Below are positions 1 through 39,000 of a stretch of DNA of 39,767 nucleotides, piece after piece; the first letter of the stretch is position 1; every line of letters starts with the position of its first letter. Origin of the DNA: Planctomycetota bacterium (lineage in GTDB: Bacteria > Planctomycetota > GCA-002687715 > DRQF01); assembly GCA_036479435.1 (NCBI GenBank), contig JAZGFI010000153.1, positions 1 to 39,767 of the forward strand, given 5' to 3'. Under the pieces are notes generated by a model. The model made no database searches and was not told the DNA's origin. It saw only the letters and a list, made by a program, of their open reading frames with translations. Both the position numbers and the translations under genes were made by a program.

Positions 1-100
1 ATCACTTAGCGAACCCGTCTAACGAGGAGCCGGATGCGTCAATCGCGCACGTCCGGATCTGTGGGGGGCTGGGGAGAAAAATCTCCCTGGTCTACCCGAC
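1..100 (+). mobile_element. 3' end of a group II intron (domain V at ~27-60, domain VI at ~63-97); the rest lies upstream of the window
   Basis: GAGCCGGATGCG-TCAATCG-CGCACGTCCGGATCT is a full-length domain V with an AGC triad and AC bulge. GGG-GGGCTGGGGAGA-AAAA-TCTCCCTGGTCT-A-CCC is a domain VI stem with a bulged A at 94. The segment ends CTACCCGAC (AY terminus) at 100. Confidence 0.9.
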
Positions 101-175
101 GACTAAATTCTCCCGCTTTTTTAGGTCAGACCTAAAAAAGCGGGAGAATTTAGTCTGACGCCGTACAGCCGGTTT
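101..175. repeat. Palindromic REP/MITE-like element, copy R1
   Basis: Perfect 26-bp inverted repeat 101-126/130-155 with loop CAG. On the minus strand it begins AAACCG-GCTGTAC-GGCGTCAG and aligns with 14128-14182. Confidence 0.9.
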
Positions 176-14127: not shown

Positions 14128-14190
14128 AAACCGACCATACGGTGTCAGACCAAATTCTCCCGCTTTTCTAGGTCAGACCTAATCATCCCG
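14128..14190 (+). repeat. Palindromic element copy R2 (left arm plus central hairpin)
   Basis: AAACCG-ACCATAC-GGTGTCAGACCAAATTCTCCCGCTTTTCTAGGTCAGACCTAATCATCCCG; close match to the reverse complement of R1. Confidence 0.88.
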
Positions 14191-14719: not shown

Positions 14720-14793
14720 GAGAACGGAGTCAGTCTTCTTTCTCCCGCATTGCCAAATCAGATCCAGTGAACCGAAAGAAAGACGGCTGCCAC
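14720..14793. repeat. Degenerate palindromic element copy R3
   Basis: 14720-14747 matches 16580-16607 at 26/28 nt. AAATCAGATCCAG resembles AAATTAGGTCTGG, followed by a decayed right arm. Confidence 0.75.
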
Positions 14794-14844: not shown

Positions 14845-16381
14845 TCATTCCGGGCCGAAGATCTCAGCAAACTTCGATTCCAAGATTCCTACCTCTTCGT
14901 CGGTCAAGCCTTTGAGCTCTCCCGTTCTGTCGCGCTTGGATAGGCGACCGGAATTTTGGCGGAGGAAGCGGGTGGTGAGGTCGACCAAGCGGTCTGGCAT
15001 GTCCACGAGGTTTTTGATGAAGCGACTGAATTCATCGTGCTTCGCCAAGTAATTCACTTCTTCCGGCAGCGTCTTGGTGACCGTTTCTTCGACGAATCCA
15101 CACAGGAACTCTGCTTGCTTGCTGGCATCGAAGTATCGAAAAAAGTCAGCGGTCTCGTTCAGGACTTTGACGTTGCCCTCAATCGTCAGTCGCCAGTCTG
15201 TCAAATCGAGCCGCGGCTTGGAAAAGTGATCTAAGGTAGATTTGTAGGCTCCCAAGCGCTCAAGAATGGCGGCCGAAACCGGGAAGACAAGGCCCGGAGG
15301 GCCGAAGGCTCTCTCCGCCAAGATGTGGTGGAAAAGGTAGCGATGAAGGCGGCCGTTGCCGTCGACGAATGGGTGAATAAAGACAAACCCGAAGGCTATG
15401 ATCGTCGCTTCGAGTACGGGGTCATACTCACTGTTCTTAAGCAGCTCGTAGGTGTCGATGAGGCCCTGGAAGAGGTCTTTAAGATCCTTGGCTCGAGCAG
15501 AGATGTGGACGGGCATGGGCGCCTCCGTGCTCCGATCATGTTCACCAACAAAGCCCTCTTCGCGGCGGCAGCCCTGAGCCATGAAGCGATCGTCGGTGAT
15601 GACGATGCCCTGAGGTACTCAAACTCGTTGACGCTAAGCTCTCGCTGTCCCGCTTCGCCGATGATCCGCCCCCAGCGTTCGATGCGACTGTGCGCAGGTG
15701 TTTCGCCCTCGATGCGGTAAGAGGCAATCGAATCCTCCAGTAAGAGAAAAGCTGCGGCTCGACTCAAAAGTTCCGGGCGGGTTTCGCCGAGGTGATCGAC
15801 GGCGGCCCTTGAGATGTCTTGTGAGATGAACTTCTCGAGCTTCTTGGTCTTCCTAATGAGAGGGCAGAATTGCGGCGTGCCCGGCAAGTTGTTGCGAACC
15901 CGGTGGCGGCGTGAGTTCCTTGAGGGCCCCGGGTATTGGAACTTTTCGTTGACGAGGTCGACGTAGTTGCCGCGCGCGGCATTCTCGATCTTGAGGTCTT
16001 TGCCGGTGAGGCATTCGTAGAGAAACCAAAGTCGCCGACTGTAAGCCCCCGTCGGCTCGGCTCGAATAAGGTCAACAATCTGCTCGGCGTCGATGGCCAA
16101 GTACAGGGCCTTCAAGACTCCAAGGTCGAGGCCTTCGTGCTTCAGCGCGAAAGTAAGGTGGCCGCGCAGGCAATCTTTCGGCTGGTGCCGAATCGTGAAG
16201 ATGCGCCAGTTCCCAACCTCGCGTTTTTGGTGGGTGGGACCGATGGCGTACAGGTAGTCGGGAGTTGGCCCCAACCCTCAATCAATGCCGAATAACCAGC
16301 TAAGGCGATGGCACCCGGAACAGCAACCCCGTGAAAAACGGCGACTTCTCGTGAATTACGTTTATTGCCAGCCATTTCCAT
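14845..16381 (-). pseudogene. Fic family protein, frameshifted twice (near 16270 and 15613)
   Basis: Three consecutive frames join into one protein (GYSALIEG / PTPDYLYAIG...EFEYL / QGIVITDDRF...). The Fic motif HPFVDGNGRLHR is intact. Confidence 0.88.
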
Positions 16382-16579: not shown

Positions 16580-16673
16580 GAGAACCGAGTCAGTCTTCTT
16601 TTTCCCGGGAAATTAGGTCTGGCCCTGACCTAATCAAGTGGGAGAAAGGAGACTGACACCAGTTAACCGGTTT
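16580..16673 (-). repeat. Palindromic element copy R4 (near full length)
   Basis: Minus strand AAACCG-GTTAACT-GGTGTCAGTCTCCTTTCTCCCACTTGATTAGGTCAGGGCCAGACCTAATTTCCCGGGAAAAAGAAGACTGAC. Confidence 0.88.
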
Positions 16674-24445: not shown

Positions 24446-27400
24446 ATGAGCGAAGAATTGCCCGAGGAAGACTCAGCATCGGTCCCGCCCGCCGTGGATT
24501 GGATCGGAATCGAAATCGAGTTCGACGCCCGCATCAACTTTGCGATGGAGCAAAACGACGTCCCCGTCGTGAAGATCTTGCGCCTTTCGCGACTCGGCTT
24601 GGACGCTGAGAGCCGCGATGGTGGCGATGAGAGCGATGAGAATTTAGGGGCGTTCCGCGATCTTGAGATCACTATCGAGATCAAAGCCGATTTCGCCAAG
24701 CCGGTAAGGCTTCACCTGAGCCGGATCGATCCCGGTCAAACCGTGGTCTTGGACCGCGTCGATCTTCGGCCACGCCCCGAACGCTTGGCCCAACAAATCG
24801 AAAGCGAGTTCACCACGCTCACCACGACGGTGCGAGCGCAGGGTCGCATCTTGGGCCTAGACGAGCAGCGCTTAGAGATCTTGCCCTTTAATCACTGGCC
24901 CGCGGATGCTGCGCCACCCGAGATCCTGGCCGCTTTCTGCCTCCCCAATCACCCCGGCATCGAAGCGACCGTAGCCGCGGCGCGCCCGTACTTGGCCCGG
25001 CTGACCGGGTCCGACAGTTTCGACGGTTACCAATCAAAGGACTCACGGCGTGTTCAGGCAATGGTGCACGCGATATACATAGCGACCCGCGATCTGGGAT
25101 TTGGCTACGCCAATCCCCCGGCCAACTTCGAGACTCAAGGCCAAAAGGTCCGCCTCCCCGAACAAATGCTCGCCAACAAACTTGGCACCTGCATCGATTT
25201 GGCTTTGTTTTTGGCGGCCGCCTTAGAGCAAGCGGGGCTCGCTCCGATCTTGATTTTGCTGAACGGGCATGCCTTTGTGGGCTGTTGGCTGCACGAACAA
25301 CGCCTGCTCGAGCCCTCGATAAGTGACGGCTCCTACTTTCGAAAGTTCGCCAACCTCGGTGGTCTCGTCTTTGTCGAGGCCACGGGACTCACGACGGCGC
25401 CTCCCTTGGATTTCGAGGAGGCCGTTGAGGCCGGGCTTCGAGGTTTGTCCGACGAGCGAACGTTCCTTTACGGCATCGACATTAAGGGCTGCCGTGACGT
25501 CGGGGTTACGCCCTTGCCGTTTCGCCGCGAGGACGGTGTTTTGGTCATCGAGCCTCGGGCACGAGAAAAAACCGATCCCTCTTCCAAGACGGGCGAAGCG
25601 GAATCTCCTGAGGCCGGTGAGCCGGGGCTCAAGCTGCGCGAAGTCGTGCGAGGGCCCGCGCGCGTCGAGCACTGGAAACGGCGGCTGCTTGACCTTTCTT
25701 TGAACAACCGCTTCCTCAACTTTCGACCGACGAAGAAGACTCTCGCCCTCGAAGTTCACGACCTCGCGGTCCTCGAAGACGCGCTCGTCAGCGGCAGCAA
25801 GTTCACGATCTATGGCCGTCCCCAGGCCATCGAAGGCCAGGGCATTCGCGATCTTGACCGGCGGCTTGAGCAAACCGGTGAAGACCTTCGCCGCGACTAT
25901 TTCGTGGACCAATTCAAAGACAAACGACTGTTTTCGACGGTGGAACAAGGCGAGACCGAATCCAGGTTATTGGAGATCTATCGCCAAGCGCGGCGGACGC
26001 TCGAAGACACCGGTGCCAATACTCTTTATCTCGCCCTAGGTTTTTTGAAGTGGTCGGAAGTCGAAGGGGCTGAAACACGCCTTCGCGCCCCCATCCTTCT
26101 GCTTCCCGTGTCTTTGACCAGAAAGTCCGCACGCGAGGACTTTCGCCTGGTCCTAGGCGATGAGGAACCACGGGTCAACGTCACCTTGCTGGAGAAACTT
26201 CGGCAGGATTTCGGCCTGGATACGAAGGAACTCGAAGAACTCCCCGAGGACGAACGCGGTCTCGATATTGGCGAGATCTTAGCGCGCTGGCGTGCCGCGG
26301 TGCTGACGATAGCAGGCTGGGACGTCGAAGAAAGCGCGTCGCTAGCCCTCTTCACCTTCTCGAAGTTCATGATCTGGCAAGACCTTGAAAGCAATGTCGA
26401 AGCCCTCATGGCCAATGACTTGGTGCGGCACTTGATCGACCGGCCGGGCGAAGATTTCCGGCGGCAAGACCAAGAACCGCTAACTCCCGAGTCCCTTGAC
26501 CGCGAAGTAGCGCTGCGCGATATTTTCTGCCCCCGTGACGCCGACAGCACCCAGCTCGCCGCCGTGGTCGCCGCCACCCAGGGCCACTCTTTTGTGCTGC
26601 AAGGTCCGCCAGGGACCGGCAAGTCACAGACGATTACGAATCTGATTGCCCAGGCCTTGGCGGAGGGCAAGCGCATCTTGTTCGTGGCCGAGAAAATGGC
26701 GGCCTTAGACGTCGTGAAGGATCGTCTGGACGCCGAGGGCTTGGGCTTTGCGTGTTTGGAGATCCACTCCAACAAGGCGTCGAAACGAGTCGTCTTGGAT
26801 CAACTGCAAGAGGCGCTCGAGGTCAGCGAAAGCAAAAGCCCCGCGCGTTGGGAGCAAGCGGTGACGCGCTTCGAAACCTTGCGCGATGATCTGAACGCTT
26901 ACGTGCAAACCCTTCACGAACCGGGGAGTTTTGGGCTTTCGGTTTTCGAGGCAACCGGCCGCGTGGTGGCGCTGCGAGGTTCCTCGCGGGTACTGATAGA
27001 CGCCGCGACCCTCGCTGGCCTCGATGCCGAGACTTACGAGCAAGATGCTGAACTGACATCGGCCTTGGCGACCGCGGTCATGGCGGTTGAACAAGTAGCA
27101 CCCTTATCATCACACCCGCTTCAAGGAGTGGGCCTTGGCGATTGGCGGCCCACTTTGCCGAGGGATTTCCAGTCTCAGCTAAGAGCCCTTGAAAGTGCCG
27201 CGACCAAGGCCGAGGCCGGGTTCTCGGCTCTGGCCCCTGATCTTGAGCTAAACCCGGAAACTAATGCCAACCTCGATCTTTCGGCCCTACTCCCCGAGGC
27301 TCTAGAATTTCTCACCGGTCCGCGACCTTTGCTTGCAGAGTGGATATCGACGACGGGCTGGACCGAACGATGCGCCCGTGTCCATGAGTTGTTGGCCGAT

Positions 27401-30400
27401 GGTGAGCAGCTCAAGGTCATTGAGAATGATCTCGCCTTGCGATGGGAAGTTGGCGAAGAACCTCAGCATCCTTCACAGCTGGCTTCGCGCTGGCGGGACT
27501 TGGATAACAGCTTCTTCGTGGCGCGTTGGTGGGGGCGTCGCAAGATCATAAAAGAGCTTGAGCCTTGGCGTGGCGGCCGAACCTTACCGGATGCAGCGCA
27601 GGTCTTAGAGGATCTTGGCCACGCACAGCGGCTGCGTGAACTCCAAACGTCGATTGAAAAGGCGGATGAATCAGGCCGCGCGGCCTTTGGCGCGGCCTGG
27701 CTTGGGCTCAACTCAGATTGGCCCCGACTAAGATCCGCCTTCGAAGACGGAGAACGCCTACGCGCCACTCTGCAAACTATACGTCGGGCAAAACCCAAAC
27801 TCAGTCGGAACTTCGAAGACCGTTGGCTAGCCCTTTGCACCGACGCCGGCGATGAAGTAACACCGGGCGAAATCTTGGCCGATCGGGTGGCGGACCAAAT
27901 CCGTCTTGAGTCGGAGCTACTCCAAGCCCGGGAGGCGCTCGCCGACTTGTTGCAAGCTAGAGAAGGTGCCTTCTTCGCTGCAGGTGACGAAAAAGAATGC
28001 CTCTACGGCCGTCAGGTCCGCCGGGCTCAATGCTGGTGGGAAAGCCGTGAGGCTCTTCGCGATTGGTGCCACTTCCAGCGAGTTCTTACGAGCGCGAATG
28101 ATCGCGGACTTGGGGCGTTCTGCGACGCCATGCAGTCGGGAGATCTTAGGGCGTCCGAGCTGTCGCAAGTCGTGGAGCGCTCGCGATTGGAGACTTGGCT
28201 TGAGGACCGCTTCGAATCGCAGCCTCGGTTGCGGCAGTTCAATCGCGGAGCTCACGAGTCGAACTTGGCCGAGTTTAGGCGGCGTGACAAGGAGCTGATG
28301 GCCTTGAACCGTCAAGTCGTGGCGGCCCGCGTCCAGGCGCGTTTACCGAAGACCAGCGGTACTGAAGTCAAAGGCTCTGAGCTGGCCTTGCTTCGCCGCG
28401 AGATCACCAAAAAGGCCCGGCACAAATCGATCCGGCGCCTTTTGGCTGAAGCCCCGAATGTGATCGCTCGACTGAAGCCCTGCCTACTGATGAGCCCTTT
28501 GAGTGTCTCCCAGTATTTAGATCCCGCTCTTTTTGCTGCGGCCGATATCGTCGTCTTCGACGAAGCCTCGCAGATCCCAGTCTGGGATGCGATTGGAGCT
28601 TTGGCGCGGGGCAAGACGGCCGTCGTTGTCGGCGACACTAAGCAGTTGCCGCCAACCGCGTTCTTTCAACGCGCGCACACCTTCGTCGTTGACGACTATG
28701 ACCTCGATGCAAAGGCGGGTGATGACGAGGCCGCCGAGGAAGAGATTCCGGAAGACCTCGAAAGCGTTTTGGATGAGTGCCTACTGAACCTCCGTGAGAT
28801 GCGACTCGGCTGGCATTACCGCAGCCGTCATGAGAGTCTCATCGCCTTCAGCAATCACCACTACTACGGCAATAGCCTGTTTACTTTTCCCAGCCCCGGT
28901 GAAGCGTCTGATCGCGTTGGTGTCTCGCACCGATTCGTCGAGGACGGCGTCTACGACCGCGGCCGCAGTGCCGCCAACCGCATCGAGGCGGAAGCCTTGG
29001 TCGCCGATCTCCTCATCCGGCTGCGCGACGCTGAGGAAGATCGCAGTTTCGGGATCGTGGCTTTCAGTCAGGTTCAGCAGAAGACGATCGAGGACCTTTT
29101 GGAAAAGGCGCGGGCTCGCCATCCCGAGATTGAGCGGCATTTTCACGAAGGCGATGCCGAGGCTTTGTTCGTCAAGAATCTTGAGAATGTCCAGGGCGAT
29201 GAACGCGACGTCATCATGTTTTCGGTGGGCTACGGCCGGGATGATACCGGGCGCCTCATGATGAACTTCGGTCCTTTGAACCGACCGGGCGGCGAGCGAC
29301 GTCTGAATGTCGCGATCACCCGCGCCCGCGAACAGCTTGTGGTCTATTCCTCGATCCTGCCCGAAGACATTGACCTCAGTCGCACCCGGGCTTTGGCCGT
29401 GAAACATCTGAAGGTGTTTTTGGAGTACGCGCGGCGGGGCCCCTCGGTGTTGGCGCCGCTCGACGACGAGGTGGAAGCAAAAGATGAGGCCCAGAAAAAG
29501 GCGCCGTTGCGGAAGCTCGGGCCTGGCTTCGTTGAATCTCTCGGCGCAACCCTTCGAGCGCGCGGTCACGAAGTTGCCACGAGAGTTGGCTCGTCTTCTT
29601 ATCGAGTGGATTTAGCCCTTCGCGATCCCAAAAACCCCGATCGCTTTTGGTTGGGAATCGAGTGCGACGGCCAAAACTACCGCGATGCCGCCACGGCCAG
29701 GGATCGCGATCGCATTCGCCCTGAAGTCATGGGACATCTCGGCTGGGAGCTACACCGCGTGTGGTGCGTCGATTGGTGGCAAGATCCCGACGGTGAGCTG
29801 GATCGGATCGAGGCGCACTTGGCCGCGGTGGCCGAGGCCGCGGCGACCGAGGCCGCCGTATTCGAGATTGAGATTGAGGTTGAGGCTTCGTCCGATGGCG
29901 ACGCCAATGAAGATAGGGGAGATGACGACCCTGAGAATCCGGCTGAAGTCCACGAGACCGAAGAGGCCTATGGCGAAGCTCCGGCGGAATCTCCACGCTT
30001 CGCGGTCTACCCGGCCATTGCGCCCGCGCCCGAGTTAGGAATTGGAAAGGCGATCTACAGCAAGGAGATGAGCGCGAAAGTTGTAGAGCGCCTAGCCGAA
30101 GTCATCGACGCCGAGGCACCCTTGCATCTCGACCTTTTATGTCGTCGGCTGACCGATTGTTTTGAGGGCTCACGTCTCACCGACAAGTTGCGCAACTTTG
30201 TGGGCCATCACCTCGCGCTTCACGCCGAATCCTTTTCATCTGAGATCCGTGGCGATCAAGTCTGGCCACGCGGTTCCTTAAGCGAGCACTATGAACTTGT
30301 CCGCCAGCCCGAGGACGGCGAAAGCCGCGACCTCGGCGAGATCGCCACTGAGGAATTGGCTAACGCCGTGGTGCTCGTACTGCGCGACCAGATTGCGCTC

Positions 30401-30550
30401 GATCGCGGCGATCTCCATCGCGCCACGGCGGCCCTATTCGGAACCAAGAGGGTGGGGACCAAGGTCGCGGCGGCCGTCGATCGGGGATTGGAGGCCGTCA
30501 CCAGCAAGGGTCTCGCCCGCATCGAAGGCGAACGCGTGATCTACACCTGA
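24446..30550 (+). CDS. Large transglutaminase-like + DUF4011 + SF1 (UPF1-like) helicase + Vsr/MTES_1575-like nuclease + DUF3320 protein (Hhe-like)
   Basis: WKRRLLDLSLNNRFLN (DUF4011); helicase motifs QGPPGTGKS, FDEASQ, GDTKQLPP, HYRS, NVQGDERD and RRLNVAITRAR; nuclease RVDLA...GIECDG...RDRDRIR...GW..HRVW; N-terminal GTCID...GHAF. Confidence 0.88.
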   Translation: MSEELPEEDSASVPPAVDWIGIEIEFDARINFAMEQNDVPVVKILRLSRLGLDAESRDGGDESDENLGAFRDLEITIEIKADFAKPVRLHLSRIDPGQTVVLDRVDLRPRPERLAQQIESEFTTLTTTVRAQGRILGLDEQRLEILPFNHWPADAAPPEILAAFCLPNHPGIEATVAAARPYLARLTGSDSFDGYQSKDSRRVQAMVHAIYIATRDLGFGYANPPANFETQGQKVRLPEQMLANKLGTCIDLALFLAAALEQAGLAPILILLNGHAFVGCWLHEQRLLEPSISDGSYFRKFANLGGLVFVEATGLTTAPPLDFEEAVEAGLRGLSDERTFLYGIDIKGCRDVGVTPLPFRREDGVLVIEPRAREKTDPSSKTGEAESPEAGEPGLKLREVVRGPARVEHWKRRLLDLSLNNRFLNFRPTKKTLALEVHDLAVLEDALVSGSKFTIYGRPQAIEGQGIRDLDRRLEQTGEDLRRDYFVDQFKDKRLFSTVEQGETESRLLEIYRQARRTLEDTGANTLYLALGFLKWSEVEGAETRLRAPILLLPVSLTRKSAREDFRLVLGDEEPRVNVTLLEKLRQDFGLDTKELEELPEDERGLDIGEILARWRAAVLTIAGWDVEESASLALFTFSKFMIWQDLESNVEALMANDLVRHLIDRPGEDFRRQDQEPLTPESLDREVALRDIFCPRDADSTQLAAVVAATQGHSFVLQGPPGTGKSQTITNLIAQALAEGKRILFVAEKMAALDVVKDRLDAEGLGFACLEIHSNKASKRVVLDQLQEALEVSESKSPARWEQAVTRFETLRDDLNAYVQTLHEPGSFGLSVFEATGRVVALRGSSRVLIDAATLAGLDAETYEQDAELTSALATAVMAVEQVAPLSSHPLQGVGLGDWRPTLPRDFQSQLRALESAATKAEAGFSALAPDLELNPETNANLDLSALLPEALEFLTGPRPLLAEWISTTGWTERCARVHELLADGEQLKVIENDLALRWEVGEEPQHPSQLASRWRDLDNSFFVARWWGRRKIIKELEPWRGGRTLPDAAQVLEDLGHAQRLRELQTSIEKADESGRAAFGAAWLGLNSDWPRLRSAFEDGERLRATLQTIRRAKPKLSRNFEDRWLALCTDAGDEVTPGEILADRVADQIRLESELLQAREALADLLQAREGAFFAAGDEKECLYGRQVRRAQCWWESREALRDWCHFQRVLTSANDRGLGAFCDAMQSGDLRASELSQVVERSRLETWLEDRFESQPRLRQFNRGAHESNLAEFRRRDKELMALNRQVVAARVQARLPKTSGTEVKGSELALLRREITKKARHKSIRRLLAEAPNVIARLKPCLLMSPLSVSQYLDPALFAAADIVVFDEASQIPVWDAIGALARGKTAVVVGDTKQLPPTAFFQRAHTFVVDDYDLDAKAGDDEAAEEEIPEDLESVLDECLLNLREMRLGWHYRSRHESLIAFSNHHYYGNSLFTFPSPGEASDRVGVSHRFVEDGVYDRGRSAANRIEAEALVADLLIRLRDAEEDRSFGIVAFSQVQQKTIEDLLEKARARHPEIERHFHEGDAEALFVKNLENVQGDERDVIMFSVGYGRDDTGRLMMNFGPLNRPGGERRLNVAITRAREQLVVYSSILPEDIDLSRTRALAVKHLKVFLEYARRGPSVLAPLDDEVEAKDEAQKKAPLRKLGPGFVESLGATLRARGHEVATRVGSSSYRVDLALRDPKNPDRFWLGIECDGQNYRDAATARDRDRIRPEVMGHLGWELHRVWCVDWWQDPDGELDRIEAHLAAVAEAAATEAAVFEIEIEVEASSDGDANEDRGDDDPENPAEVHETEEAYGEAPAESPRFAVYPAIAPAPELGIGKAIYSKEMSAKVVERLAEVIDAEAPLHLDLLCRRLTDCFEGSRLTDKLRNFVGHHLALHAESFSSEIRGDQVWPRGSLSEHYELVRQPEDGESRDLGEIATEELANAVVLVLRDQIALDRGDLHRATAALFGTKRVGTKVAAAVDRGLEAVTSKGLARIEGERVIYT

Positions 30551-34991: not shown

Positions 34992-35065
34992 CGGGGCGTG
35001 GCTCAGCCTGGTAGAGCGCTACGTTCGGGACGTAGAGGCCGGTGGTTCGAATCCACTCGCCCCGA
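34992..35065 (+). tRNA. tRNA-Pro (anticodon CGG), CCA not encoded
   Basis: Acceptor CGGGGCG/CGCCCCG, D-arm GCTCAGCCTGGTAGAGC, anticodon arm CTACG-TTCGGGA-CGTAG, T-loop GGTTCGAATCC. Confidence 0.97.
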
Positions 35066-35072
35066 CTCAAAG

Positions 35073-35113
35073 AACCCTCGGCATCGCACTGACATGCGCG
35101 CCGAGGGTTTTTT
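35073..35113 (+). terminator. Terminator after tRNA-Pro
   Basis: AACCCTCGGC...GCCGAGGGTT-TTTT. Confidence 0.8.
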
Positions 35114-35218
35114 CACGCGAAGACCGGTTTGGCGTTTTACACCAAGAATTCCACCAAACGTCATCTTGCGCCGCCACTGTTCTCGGTTTCTCCCACACTG
35201 ATAAGGGGAGTACCTACG

Positions 35219-35398
35219 ATGACCAGAAAGCAAAGAAGCGGCATCTACTCGGTAGCCAAGAACGGCCGCACTTACTGGAACTTCAAAGCCAAGGATCCAG
35301 AGACCGGCGAGTGGTTTTGCCAGTCCGTTTCCAAGAAGGGCGACATCGCCAAGGCCGCGCCGACAGCGCATCGAAGGTCGAACAGATCACGGAGGTGA
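35219..35398 (+). pseudogene. Possible N-terminal arm-binding stub of a tyrosine integrase
   Basis: Strong RBS (AAGGGGAG); MTRKQRSGIYSVAKNGRTYWNFKAKDPETGEWFCQSV has the look of an arm-binding beta domain; first ORF after the tRNA. No catalytic domain is present. Confidence 0.45.
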
Positions 35399-35401
35399 AT
35401 C

Positions 35402-35689
35402 ATGACCCGGCAGGCAAAGATCACACTAATGCTGGCAATCACTGCGATGGTCGTTCCTTTCCTCGGCTTGGCGTTTTGCTCGATGCAGAAGAGCGCCAGC
35501 GCGAAAAGAAGGCTCGGGTTTAGCGTTTCAAAGAGGAAGGGCGGAAGTGCCGTCAGGAACTCCAGGACGGCTTTAGGGGCTCAGAGTTCATGCAGCGAGC
35601 TCGCCAAGTCGTCGGCCCCTACGTCGCCAGCAAGGGATGTCCCCAAACTGGTCCGTGGCGTTAGGGATACCGGCAGGCTGAGCTGGTGA
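35402..35689 (+). CDS. Hypothetical membrane-anchored protein or fragment
   Basis: GGAGGT RBS and a hydrophobic N-terminal helix. Confidence 0.35.
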   Translation: MTRQAKITLMLAITAMVVPFLGLAFCSMQKSASAKRRLGFSVSKRKGGSAVRNSRTALGAQSSCSELAKSSAPTSPARDVPKLVRGVRDTGRLSW

Positions 35690-36114
35690 TCGAGCGGCGC
35701 GGCTACCCCAGAGCCGAGAGCGCAGTGATGCACCGAATGAGCCAGCCCGATCAAACCGGGAGGTACGGACGGCTGCGACGCCGTGCGGCCGGATTGGAGG
35801 TCTTCGATTCGGAGGCCTATGCCCTCAGAATGAAGTGGGAACGTTACGGAATGATGGAGACTTTGATGCTGCACCTCGAAAAGGAGGGCGAGCTTAGCGA
35901 CTTCCTCGATCGGTACCAGCGAGAGTAGCACGGGCCCGTAAGGGACCGGGAAATGGCGCTCCGGCGTCGACACCGCTGCATGACCAACTGGCTTGCCCAG
36001 TCAACGCCGACGTGTGACGGCCCAATCCAGTTCGACGACTCGATTTGGACCGAGTACGTCGACATTAGAGTCGGGGCCGCGAGGCACCGCCTCGCTTTCT
36101 ATTTCGAGACCGCG

Positions 36115-36399
36115 ATGTTCGACATCCAGATTGAAAACGTCATGCCCCTCGCCAAGGCCGCCGCCTTTGTCGGCAAGCTCAAGAACAAGAAGGTCCACAC
36201 CTCGACGATCTACAGGTGGATCAAAGTCGTAAGGAAAGGCTGCCGCCTCGAATGCATCTCCGTCGGTGGAACAATGTGCACGTCAGTCGAGGCTCTCCCG
36301 AGGTTCTTTGGGGAACTCAAGCGGCTGGAGCTGCCACAGGTGCCGAGGGTGACGGCAGATGAAGGACGTAGAGCGGAAACTGAACCGATTGAAGGCTGA
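36115..36399 (+). CDS. DUF1580 HTH (excisionase-like) protein
   Basis: ENVMPLAKAA...KVHTSTIYRWIKVVRKGCRLECISVGGTMCTSVEALPRFF, typical of planctomycete mobile elements. Confidence 0.8.
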   Translation: MFDIQIENVMPLAKAAAFVGKLKNKKVHTSTIYRWIKVVRKGCRLECISVGGTMCTSVEALPRFFGELKRLELPQVPRVTADEGRRAETEPIEG

Positions 36400-36414
36400 A
36401 CTGTTCCGGGCCAG

Positions 36415-37316
36415 TCACAGGCTTGTCAGGTACTCCACGACCTGTCGTTCATCCCATGGCAGGGAATGAGCTGGGTCGGCAATCACGTGCTCTGGCGCGG
36501 CATCCTTCAGTTCGGACTCGTCCTTCGCCGTGAACACGAGAAGCACGTACCCATCTCGGTGCTTGCCGGCCGCCCGACGTCAGCTTGATCCGAGTCTTGG
36601 TGCTCCTCCTGCCTTTGACCTCGTACCTCGTCTCATCGGTCTCGATGTCCCACCCGACGCAAAGGTGCGCGACGTCTTTGACGCGCTTCTTCGTGGTTTC
36701 CCTGACCCACTCAATGGCACGAAGTTCCGCCAGCTGCCCCCACTCCGAATCCGGGCTGGCGGAAGGCCTGGCTTCTTGTTCCTCATTACGCGGACGGCAT
36801 TGCCTGGTTGTCTCCGGATCTTGTCGATGTACTTGATGATCGCAGGGGCACCGGCTTCGATACGCGACACCGTCTGAATACCGCCGACCCGTGCAACACC
36901 GCCAGCGAGCTCACCGAGTTCAGCTGGAGTGAGCGCACCGTACCACTTCACGCTCCGGCGAAGTCGAAACGGGCAGCCGTCACGCGGACGGGGAACATAG
37001 TCCAACTCGCCGTCAATAACGCCGAGGTAGACCACCGCACCCTGGCTGTCGGGGGCAAGGACGTAATCCCCCTCGTTGATACGCGAGCAATAAGCCCAGA
37101 TCGAGGACGCGGCGGACGTCAGTTCTTTCGGGTACTTCGAGTAGTCAGGCCACGTTCGAAGGATGGATGCCCTAACGTCGTCGCGAGAAGCTGCCTCTCG
37201 AAGGTCGCCTACATCTTCCCAACCGATCGCGGCGTAGCCGTTCTTCCGGCAAGTGACGGCGATTCATCTTCAGCGCCTGGTCGTCGCAGAAAGACCTTCC
37301 AGAGAGTGGCAGCCAT
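36415..37316 (-). pseudogene. Restriction-type nuclease: COG4127/Mrr-associated N-terminal domain fused to DUF3883 (NOV_C), with three lesions
   Basis: RBS AGGAAGGA plus ATG 37316 (MAATLWKVFLRR); then NGYAAIGWEDVGDL...GDYVLAPD...YLGVIDGE...RRSVKW; then ELRAIEWV...VKDVAHLCVGWDIETDETRYEVKG...IKLT; then RAAGKHRDGYVLLV...EYLTSL*. Confidence 0.75.
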
Positions 37317-37526
37317 TTGGTCCTTCCTATTTCACCGCTGTCTCGACAGCTTGCGCAAGACCATGCGTTCTGTGACAAGTACTTGGTGCTGTGCTTCCTG
37401 TTTTTCGAAAAGCCACTCGACGGCGCTATGGTGAAAAAGGCAACACAAGATTATCGTCAGAAACAACTTAGAGAACGCCAATGGTGTCCCTCGAGAACTC
37501 CAACTTGAAGATGTTCCAAGAAATTA

Positions 37527-37541
37527 TTACCTATTAGGTAA
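37527..37541. promoter_or_regulatory. Putative HigA operator palindrome
   Basis: TTACCTA-T-TAGGTAA, about 25 nt upstream of higB and downstream of a TTGAAG -35 at 37505. Confidence 0.65.
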
Positions 37542-37565
37542 GGATGGTCAGGGCGAGGAGTCGAT

Positions 37566-37904
37566 GTGAAGATCGAATTCGGCGATCGGAAGCTTGAGAA
37601 GAGGTGCGCCTCGGAGGCGACACGCTTGAGAGCTTTTGGCAAAGTCCGCGCCAAGAAACTTGCAATCAGACTCACCTCGCTGGAGGCAGCTGAGATCCTG
37701 GGAGACCTCCGAAATGTCCCAGGTCGTTTCCATGAACTGACGGGCGACCTTGACGGAGAGCTCGCCGCTGACTTGGACCACCCATACCGCCTCATTTTCG
37801 AGCCGGCGATACCAGACCATGCCGAGGCTGCCCACGCAGATGGCCTCGCCTGGTCACTGATCAAGCACGTACGAATCCTCCGGATCGAGGACTATCATGA
37901 CTAA
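37566..37904 (+). CDS. higB: HigB/RelE-family toxin (plasmid maintenance system killer type)
   Basis: MKIEFGDRKLEK...PGRFHELTGDLDGELAADLDHPYRLIFEP...RIEDYHD; GAGGAG RBS. Confidence 0.88.
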   Translation: MKIEFGDRKLEKRCASEATRLRAFGKVRAKKLAIRLTSLEAAEILGDLRNVPGRFHELTGDLDGELAADLDHPYRLIFEPAIPDHAEAAHADGLAWSLIKHVRILRIEDYHD

Positions 37905-39000
37905 GCCATCACCAACCACAATCCAAGATCTCTCGCCGCCAGGCGACATCCTCGAAGAAGCTCTCGAAGATCGAGGAATGTCGAATGCCGAACTCTCGAG
38001 ACGAACGGGTCTCAGTGAGAAGCACATCAGCCAGTTGATCAACGCGAAGGTTCCACTCTCCATGGAGGTTGCGCTCCAACTTGAGCAAGTCCTGGGAGTC
38101 CCTGCTCGATTCTGGGCGGCCCTCGACTTCAATTACCGAAGCGAACAGAGGCGAAGAGAACAAAACGAGACTCTGAAGGACTCTGCTTCATGGATGCGTC
38201 AATTCCCCGTGGGAGAGATGATCAAATTGGGTTTCCTGCCTGATGTCGGACGAGCGGCAACTGATCGCGTACATGCTCTTCTCCGATTCTTTGGTGTGAC
38301 ATCGGAAGGAACTTGGGAGAACCAGTGGGATTCGGTCACGGCACGTTTTAGACAATCACCAGCGTTCAATCCGGATCGTTGCGCTTTGATCGCTTGGCTC
38401 CGCCAATCAGAGCTCCAAGCGCAAGAAATTCGATCCGCACCGTTCGACGAAAAGAAATTCAGAGCAGCGCTCTCCGAAATCAGGAAACTGACAACCACGG
38501 GGCCACGGGAATTTCAGCCGGCGCTGAGATCGCTCTGCGCACGCGCTGGGGTCGCGGTGACCATGGTTCCCGCGATTCCAAAGCTCGCAATTAGTGGCGT
38601 TACCCGCTGGCTCGGTTCTGATCGCGCTGCGATTCATCTCAGCCTTCGCCACCGCACCAATGACCAGCTGTGGTTCAGCTTCTTCCACGAAGCGTGCCAC
38701 GTATTGGAACACCGCACGCGCACGATCTTCATCGACTCGAAACAGGACCCGAACGAAGATGAGGATGAGCAGCGAGCGAATGAGTTTGCCCGGGATTTTC
38801 TGATTCCGCCGGACGTCTTTGCCGTGTTTGTCGCAAGAGGCCGCTTTGATCAAACCAGTATTACACGGTTTGCTAAGGCGACTGACATCGCACCCGGCAT
38901 AGTCGTGGGTAGGTTGCAGCACGAAGGGCACCTCCTCCACAACCAATGCAACAAGCTCAAGGTTCGTTTCGTCTGGAGCCACGAGGCCGATGACAAGTAG
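37897..39000 (+). CDS. higA: HigA-family antitoxin: XRE HTH fused to an ImmA/IrrE-type Zn-peptidase-like domain
   Basis: PPGDILEEALEDRGMSNAELSRRTGLSEKHISQLIN; WFSFFHEACHVL (HExxH); EQRANEFA. Confidence 0.9.
   Translation: MTKPSPTTIQDLSPPGDILEEALEDRGMSNAELSRRTGLSEKHISQLINAKVPLSMEVALQLEQVLGVPARFWAALDFNYRSEQRRREQNETLKDSASWMRQFPVGEMIKLGFLPDVGRAATDRVHALLRFFGVTSEGTWENQWDSVTARFRQSPAFNPDRCALIAWLRQSELQAQEIRSAPFDEKKFRAALSEIRKLTTTGPREFQPALRSLCARAGVAVTMVPAIPKLAISGVTRWLGSDRAAIHLSLRHRTNDQLWFSFFHEACHVLEHRTRTIFIDSKQDPNEDEDEQRANEFARDFLIPPDVFAVFVARGRFDQTSITRFAKATDIAPGIVVGRLQHEGHLLHNQCNKLKVRFVWSHEADDK

Follow-up and report, generated by a model that had tools for sequence, protein, structure and literature searches.

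According to the part of a 2015 review drawn on here, the target specificities of bacterial group II introns are three: homing sites, terminators and attC. For class C introns, the portions of PMC4424553 and PMC7923331 that we used describe a 3–4 bp IBS1, no EBS2 and the need for an upstream stem-loop. Introns have also been found at dispersed palindromes, a table in the part seen of PMC1525189, on REP-targeting IS elements, giving two of nine Pseudomonas putida group II intron copies (22%) as REP-associated. The word intron is absent from the available text of PMC3733652, on TIRtrons (TIRYT elements), and occurs twice in that of PMC6006769, the instance seen being general background. Judged from part of PMC4615759, the closest published precedent for the intron described here is RmInt2 in the inverted repeats of ISRm17. 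Our literature search, made mostly outside the subscription journals and the intron database, found no paper with TIRYT or REP repeats as the main intron homing site, and none in which a class E intron is said to target a TIR or REP.

The window, that is, the whole 39,767-nt stretch of DNA analysed, is contig C153 of a 5.5-Mb, 299-contig Planctomycetota assembly (G000), and its break falls inside a group II intron, here named intron A. The window opens with the closing codons of the intron's RT/maturase gene, including its TAG stop (1–9, + strand; full gene at C135:1236–2603); these precede domain V (27–61, +; 35 nt, with an AGC triad at 28–30 and a 5-nt terminal loop, UCAAU) and domain VI (62–100, +; bulged A94, 3′ splice site AC at 99–100), and Rfam family RF00029 (Intron_gpII) matches 25–100 with 42.9 bits against a cut-off of 40. 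The 3′ exon (101–155, +) is the inner part of a palindromic TIR pair, R1, whose arms (101–127 and 129–155) are 27 nt each and 100% complementary; its first base, G101, is IBS3 and pairs with EBS3 (intron C288). The right arm extends outwards (156–175, −) as TGACGCC-GTACAGC-CGGTTT, the mirror of the AAACCG-N7-GGCGTCA missing from the left arm, and holds an empty intron A site at 156^155 (−) and an empty site of the type used by a second intron, B, at 164^165 (+). The preliminary description had ended domains V and VI at base 100, begun the palindrome arm at 101 and noted that the left arm lacks the outer part kept on the right, all of which our analysis reproduces. Contigs of two public runs from two studies span the junction (X7, window 64–159; X8, 1–178), which is therefore no artefact of the G000 assembly alone; no empty allele of the locus was seen in four of the 12 listed sequencing runs.

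Elsewhere in the window, R2 (14128–14182, +) is a single empty TIR arm with a site at 14147^14148 and an IBS1, GTGTCA, that has one wobble pair with EBS1; R3 (14720–14767, +) is a diverged single arm with a site at 14732^14733 and an IBS1 mismatch at −5; and R4 (16580–16673, no strand assigned) is a palindromic pair, also diverged, in which two sites stand empty (16592^16593, +; 16654^16653, −). The empty site foreseen at 14147^14148 is thus present in R2, and the diverged one foreseen in R4 turned out to be two. The initial picture of an intron inside a multicopy palindrome holds for R1, but R2 is a single arm, and the palindrome is probably not what is recognized, because single arms are used as well. 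Among the genes of the window, a PDZ/DUF6288 gene (175–1599, −) ends at the R1 repeat, a Fic-domain gene (14845–15582) lies between R3 and R4, a gene for a 2,034-aa DUF4011 helicase-nuclease occupies 24446–30550, and a tRNA (34992–35065) is followed by DUF1580 and HTH/IrrE-like genes (to 39000), an arrangement which suggests that 34992–39000 is an integrated element.

Intron A is whole only at C135:664–2694 (2,031 nt), where it starts with GTGCG, a 5′ end of the GTGYG form that had been proposed as a search target. Its 455-aa RT/maturase scores 341 bits against TIGR04416 (cut-off 300), and in Pfam matches only RVT_1 and, weakly, GIIM, which indicates that it has no endonuclease domain. As expected of a group II intron, the element shows a DV catalytic triad, a bulged A in DVI, 5′ GUGYG and 3′ AY termini, and an RT/maturase within DIV. 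G000 contains 15 5′ ends and 14 3′ ends of intron A, all at contig breaks except those of the C135 copy, the sole whole assembled copy and also the sole one outside the repeat; the others are presumably full-length. The assembled ends (58–125 nt) differ at no more than two positions, and copies so nearly identical suggest that intron A has spread recently and may be active.

Class C introns have a short domain V with a CGC triad. With a six-base EBS1, a 3-base EBS2, a 35-nt domain V with AGC and an RT outside class C, intron A is by its sequence features not of this class, as the preliminary description had maintained. In the RT phylogeny that it had called for, we built two quick trees (the first with 12 duplicate and 3 short rows dropped, the second from 33 chosen rows), both with one class E reference and without basal F (Ge.ur.I1-type), g4, A, B, CL or ML references, and in these the RT part of intron A joined S.me.I4, named class E in PMC5894124, with SH-aLRT of 98 and 96. 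The resulting clade was sister to three class D references, a D+E layout that agrees with what we saw of PMC3552965; the C, g1, g2 and g3 references stood apart, with the sole class C reference on a long branch outside the D+E clade, and B.th.I3, Ni.ha.I1 and the A. caldus ORF (class F/g2/g3) fell outside the intron A clade. The lack of an endonuclease domain and the 5-nt DV loop fit class E, both features being common to class F too. Intron A thus probably belongs to class E; of the label E/F-like, given by eye, the E part stands, but the RT lies apart from the g2/g3 class F references.

For the 5′ exon of the C153 copy, arm complementarity gave an ambiguous partner and synteny settled on C207, the gene adjoining the DUF6288 orthologue corresponding to C207 in six of eight family genomes. 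C207 starts with the intron 5′ end, and its exon ends AACTGGCTATACGGCGTCA, 17 nt past the stop of a 95-codon ORF. In the C207–intron–C153 join predicted from this synteny, the 5′ exon therefore ends in the GGYGTCA-like arm that had been anticipated.

Across G000, intron A junctions fall at one arm position, GGHGTCA^GAC, for 14 of the 15 5′ ends and 13 of the 14 3′ ends, so that the junction first given as GGYGTCA^GAC is borne out with H in place of Y. All 15 5′ exons end G-H-GTCA, and further conserved exon columns are −14 G (14/15), −10 T (14/15), +1 G (13/14) and +3 C (14/14). Typical arms make up 13 of the 15 5′ exons; that of C18 is a variant arm with a mirror copy just upstream, matching the C144 3′ exon; and only the C135 site is in unrelated DNA, the one exception to the early expectation that the copies would not sit in unrelated sequence.

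Since single-sequence folding of intron A domain I gave no usable model (z = −0.5), covariation was used in its place: 80 related loci were retrieved and boundaries assigned in 42 of 81 loci including the query, giving 27 non-redundant introns. EBS1 (nt 223–228, UGACGC) is complementary to exon positions −6 to −1, as predicted for the 5′ exon arm, EBS3 (C288) to the G at +1, and the short EBS2 (199–201, UAC) matches −9 and −10 (plus −11 in G002, a genome of another genus of the same family). In the 26 other introns EBS2 pairs at −9, −10 and −11 in 17, 19 and 20, respectively, and EBS3 pairs in 22 of 24, counts that exceed all 2,000 shuffles (mean ~7, maximum 14) for columns chosen as best and among kin that are not independent; EBS1 covariation is partly circular, many 5′ ends having been picked by that match, which is not so for EBS2 and EBS3. 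Of the 15 G000 sites, 12 allow the EBS2 pair at −9 and 14 that at −10, and only four that at −11; the C201 mismatch in the other 11 counts against the retrohoming reading favoured below. An A at −5, mismatched with EBS1, occurs in one of 13 filled and 17 of 46 empty arms (p = 0.049; p = 0.10 when scored as C versus non-C), a marginal indication that intron A under-uses such arms. IBS1 and IBS3 alone occur 3,960 times in G000, and RNA pairing therefore does not account for the specificity; with G−14, Y−13, Y−12, R−11, T−10, W+2 and C+3 added, the list shrinks to 37 sites, of which about 30 look by eye like arms. A linear word appears enough to describe the target, in a purely descriptive sense given that the motif was drawn from the same sites. 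The conserved G−14 and C+3 may be contacts of the intron protein, or these columns may reflect the repeat's own conservation.

Positions 156–162 of the window, in the R1 right arm, include the EBS1 sequence itself, TGACGC. This stretch of the precursor RNA could compete with EBS1 for pairing with IBS1 (duplex energies, for different lengths, of −30.6 kcal/mol for right arm/IBS1 versus −9.5 kcal/mol for EBS1/IBS1), and the spliced exons fold back into the hairpin, by which re-insertion into RNA may be blocked.

A profile search of G000 with the reversed genome as control detected 58 arms and none in the control, which excludes chance; free arms number 46 to 58 depending on the threshold. Inverted arms at C289:21249 and 22381 flank a gene (C289:21303–22274) for a 323-aa Y1 HUH protein that is above the PF01797 cut-off and has the HFH and YIDANP motifs (in P0001). 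It scores 59.9 bits against the REP-associated tyrosine transposase model NF047646, under the cut-off of 80, gives a weak HTH signal near its C-terminus (Sigma70_r4_2 at 260–289, E = 0.0024, under cut-off), and matched no solved structure. The repeat core, GGHGTCAG, agrees with the TIRtron GGGGWSAS at seven of eight positions. On these sequence grounds we identify the repeat as the TIR belonging to a Y1 nuclease gene of TIRYT type. It is dispersed both as lone arms and as palindromic pairs, the latter being two TIRs without the gene between them. The REP/MITE-like family put forward in the preliminary description is accordingly right as regards a dispersed multicopy homing site, but it is a TIR family and not a classical REP, given the score below the NF047646 cut-off. 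Inspected by eye, one arm alone shows no self-complementarity; a hairpin requires two. Y1 homologues occur in four of the eight other family genomes, most with their own TIR variant; the strict repeat pattern was found in G000 only among nine family genomes, and a looser pattern found the G002 variant. About two thirds of the arms lie just behind a same-sense gene. A preference of the intron for such arms was considered and rejected: they account for 11 of the 15 filled arms and 32 of the 47 empty ones (compared to 9% of random places), and this likeness makes the position a property of the repeat.

Intron B (C24:2–1947, −; L178) encodes a protein 41% identical to that of intron A and 54% to that of S.me.I4, and its ends also occur on C172, C194, C185, C211, C237 and C247, in total three 5′ ends and five intact 3′ ends. 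Its site, TCTGAC(G/T)CCGT^A, lies 9 nt from that of intron A, in the same arm but with the strand reversed, and its EBS1, read by eye in the intron A register, is ACGGUG. All three 5′ ends start GATGCG, not GTGCG; at C145, GATGC stands at the intron B point of an arm with no intron behind, perhaps as a remnant. Another intron, on C191, has the same EBS1 as intron B and is located where a small inverted pair, similar to a second TIR family, ends. That family (CGGTGCCAGGCAC; 81 loose matches) flanks a Y1 gene at C144:44303–45259, and a multi-copy element has eight ends at one position of it (C18, C72, C74, C106, C136, C144, C151 and C193). The end of this element looks IS1111-like; an IS110 transposase for it was not found in the G000 assembly. 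In Tundrisphaera lichenicola, introns of a separate subclade with EBS1 UGUCAG are at TCTGAC(A/C)^CC in three of the five junctions seen, one of these three being immediately ahead of a Y1 gene and the other two within arrays of the repeat. Tandem arrays of AAGTCTGACCCC units are present in G061 (Tundrisphaera) at C1:327959–328853 and 3455686–3456136, one of them interrupted by an intron; these units gave 28 matches in Tundrisphaera and none in the control.

Among relatives of intron A, G002 has a 73%-identical intron, found in one copy, which shares the EBS1 and occupies the equivalent position in that genome's TIR variant, along with a Y1 homologue (44% identity) that has matching TIRs. The nearest introns in G006 and G008 have different EBS1s (GUGCAC and GUGCGU) and unrelated insertion sites, and lineage A would therefore have been re-aimed recently. 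Most of the 80 related loci have other EBS1s and, by eye, no such repeat. The aim of lineage A at TIRs thus seems narrow and recent, with re-aiming by ordinary retrohoming. The next-nearest relative, L011 (65%), is inside a different short palindrome, AGTCTGCAATTGC^AGACT; at L025:880–2950 two copies of a Halomonas intron stand in direct succession, the first of them preceded at a distance of ~14 nt by GGGGTCAGACCC; and related introns at L038 and L039 (Candidatus Eisenbacteria) and L007–L010 lie within coding sequence that is itself repeated (a recurring protein motif; transposase-like genes), further examples of multi-copy targets.

We consider it likely that the endonuclease-less intron A homes by ordinary retrohoming into the conserved core of a TIRYT-type Y1 TIR. 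EBS1, EBS3 and the short EBS2 match the exon positions given above; beyond this, the intron protein would read further bases such as G−14 and C+3, and the intron RNA would reverse-splice into DNA at a replication fork, where a nascent strand would prime cDNA synthesis, the route described in the literature for RmInt1 and RmInt2. Some 50 additional intergenic sites would be available in the TIR family. As most of these come right after a stop codon, an inserted copy should harm no gene and could be transcribed by read-through; this presumed neutrality is deduced from the sites being intergenic, and the same pattern could arise if copies were lost wherever they did harm. The site would be read as linear sequence with the hairpin incidental, and a hairpin does not appear to be needed for homing. 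Other intron lineages would have been re-aimed separately at the same core, since no other multi-copy intergenic word in such genomes is as conserved.

The main rival, especially for intron B, is that homing is assisted: the palindrome's hairpin or a stalled fork, or the TIRYT nuclease binding and nicking the TIR, would open the DNA or supply the primer missing in an intron without endonuclease, with the EBS fixing only the exact base. Folding of the rebuilt empty C207/C153 site gives a long DNA hairpin (−52 kcal/mol) whose stem includes IBS1; for the intron B 5′ ends (3/3) and for the C191 intron, a complete inverted pair immediately precedes the insertion, a placement shared with class C introns; and at least three intron lineages and one further element end up in TIRYT repeats. 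Yet three of the 14 filled intron A sites are single arms and one is outside the repeat, the G002 site and the eight G002 arms seen have no palindromic partner by eye, and an inverted partner arm comes after the site in 10 of 14 filled and 26 of 46 empty cases, with no significant enrichment (p = 0.37) in a test of little power. Moreover, introns A and B cut at different bases and on different strands, each where its own EBS1 predicts, and we find such assistance rather unlikely. A broader version, which we also regard as unlikely, would make TIRYT TIRs a fourth kind of group II intron target, on which endonuclease-less introns converge because the resident HUH nuclease, or the hairpin on which it acts, opens or nicks the repeat and so yields a single strand or primer that such introns are unable to produce. 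Separate captures of this help would then be intron A (inside the core, on the inward strand), the Tundrisphaera intron (likewise inside the core, on the outward strand), and intron B together with the C191 intron (at the stem edge, also outward).

The distribution might instead reflect which copies survive, with loose insertion at many IBS1-like sites and persistence only in harmless intergenic repeats. Selection against intron copies is a published idea (in the part of PMC4615759 used), G000 holds thousands of minimal sites, and the ectopic C135 site has a wobble in IBS1 and a mismatch at IBS3. That site nevertheless shares G−14, Y−13, R−11, T−10 and C+3 with the repeat, other intergenic DNA should be equally harmless and still 14 of 15 sites are repeat arms, and near-identical copies leave little time for purging, which renders survivor bias quite improbable. 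Least probable of all is a single entry into one repeat followed by copying of the intron-bearing repeat by the Y1 nuclease or gene conversion. The tie between the repeat family and a candidate mobilizing enzyme and the same 14 bases in seven of 15 5′ exons would suit such hitch-hiking, but filled arms are of several types that differ right at the junction (GGAGTCA, GGTGTCA, TTCGCGTCA; GTC or GAC) around near-identical intron ends, the same types also occur empty, and one copy is without any repeat; flank diversity has in our view largely refuted it.

Ordinary homing aimed at a tiny non-coding repeat family would give an intron dozens of harmless sites. The repeat would also act as a shared landing pad, where two introns that are 41% alike read overlapping six-base words from opposite strands. 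Filled and empty arms side by side in one genome make it testable whether convergence stems from copy number or from nuclease or hairpin help, and the TIR core is marked out as stable and accessible, a clue to TIRYT protein function.

In comparison with described systems, and as far as the portions of each source drawn on here go, intron A resembles RmInt2 (PMC4615759), likewise multi-copy and endonuclease-less, which has all its copies in inverted repeats of a mobile element, relaxed EBS2 pairing, protein-read distal exon bases and two opposite-strand sites per element. RmInt2 is of class D and targets a full insertion sequence, whereas intron A groups with class E, its target consists of dispersed short TIR arms and palindromic pairs, mostly geneless, and a second intron lineage uses the same target. 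With the class E introns S.me.I4 and Cl.be.I2 (PMC3753933) it has in common the RT grouping with S.me.I4, the missing endonuclease, the 5-nt DV loop, a six-base EBS1, EBS2 and EBS3, but it forms a sister subclade to S.me.I4 (45% identity), to which intron B is nearer. Class C/IIC-attC introns (PMC4424553, PMC7923331) are also endonuclease-less and intergenic with many sites next to inverted repeats, and intron B is like them in landing directly behind a hairpin; intron A differs in its longer EBS1, its short EBS2, its insertion inside the first arm and its distance in the tree. REP-targeting IS elements (PMC1525189) likewise use dispersed palindromes as repeated landing sites, but are DNA transposons, and the intron association there is partial and given no mechanism in that passage. 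The repeat itself matches TIRtrons (PMC3733652; subclass 2.1, PMC6006769) in a Y1 HUH gene with a long C-terminal part, flanking TIRs and a GGGGWSAS-like core, from which the core here has one difference, and TIRtron TIRs are, like the G000 arms, also dispersed as singles, dimers and clusters.
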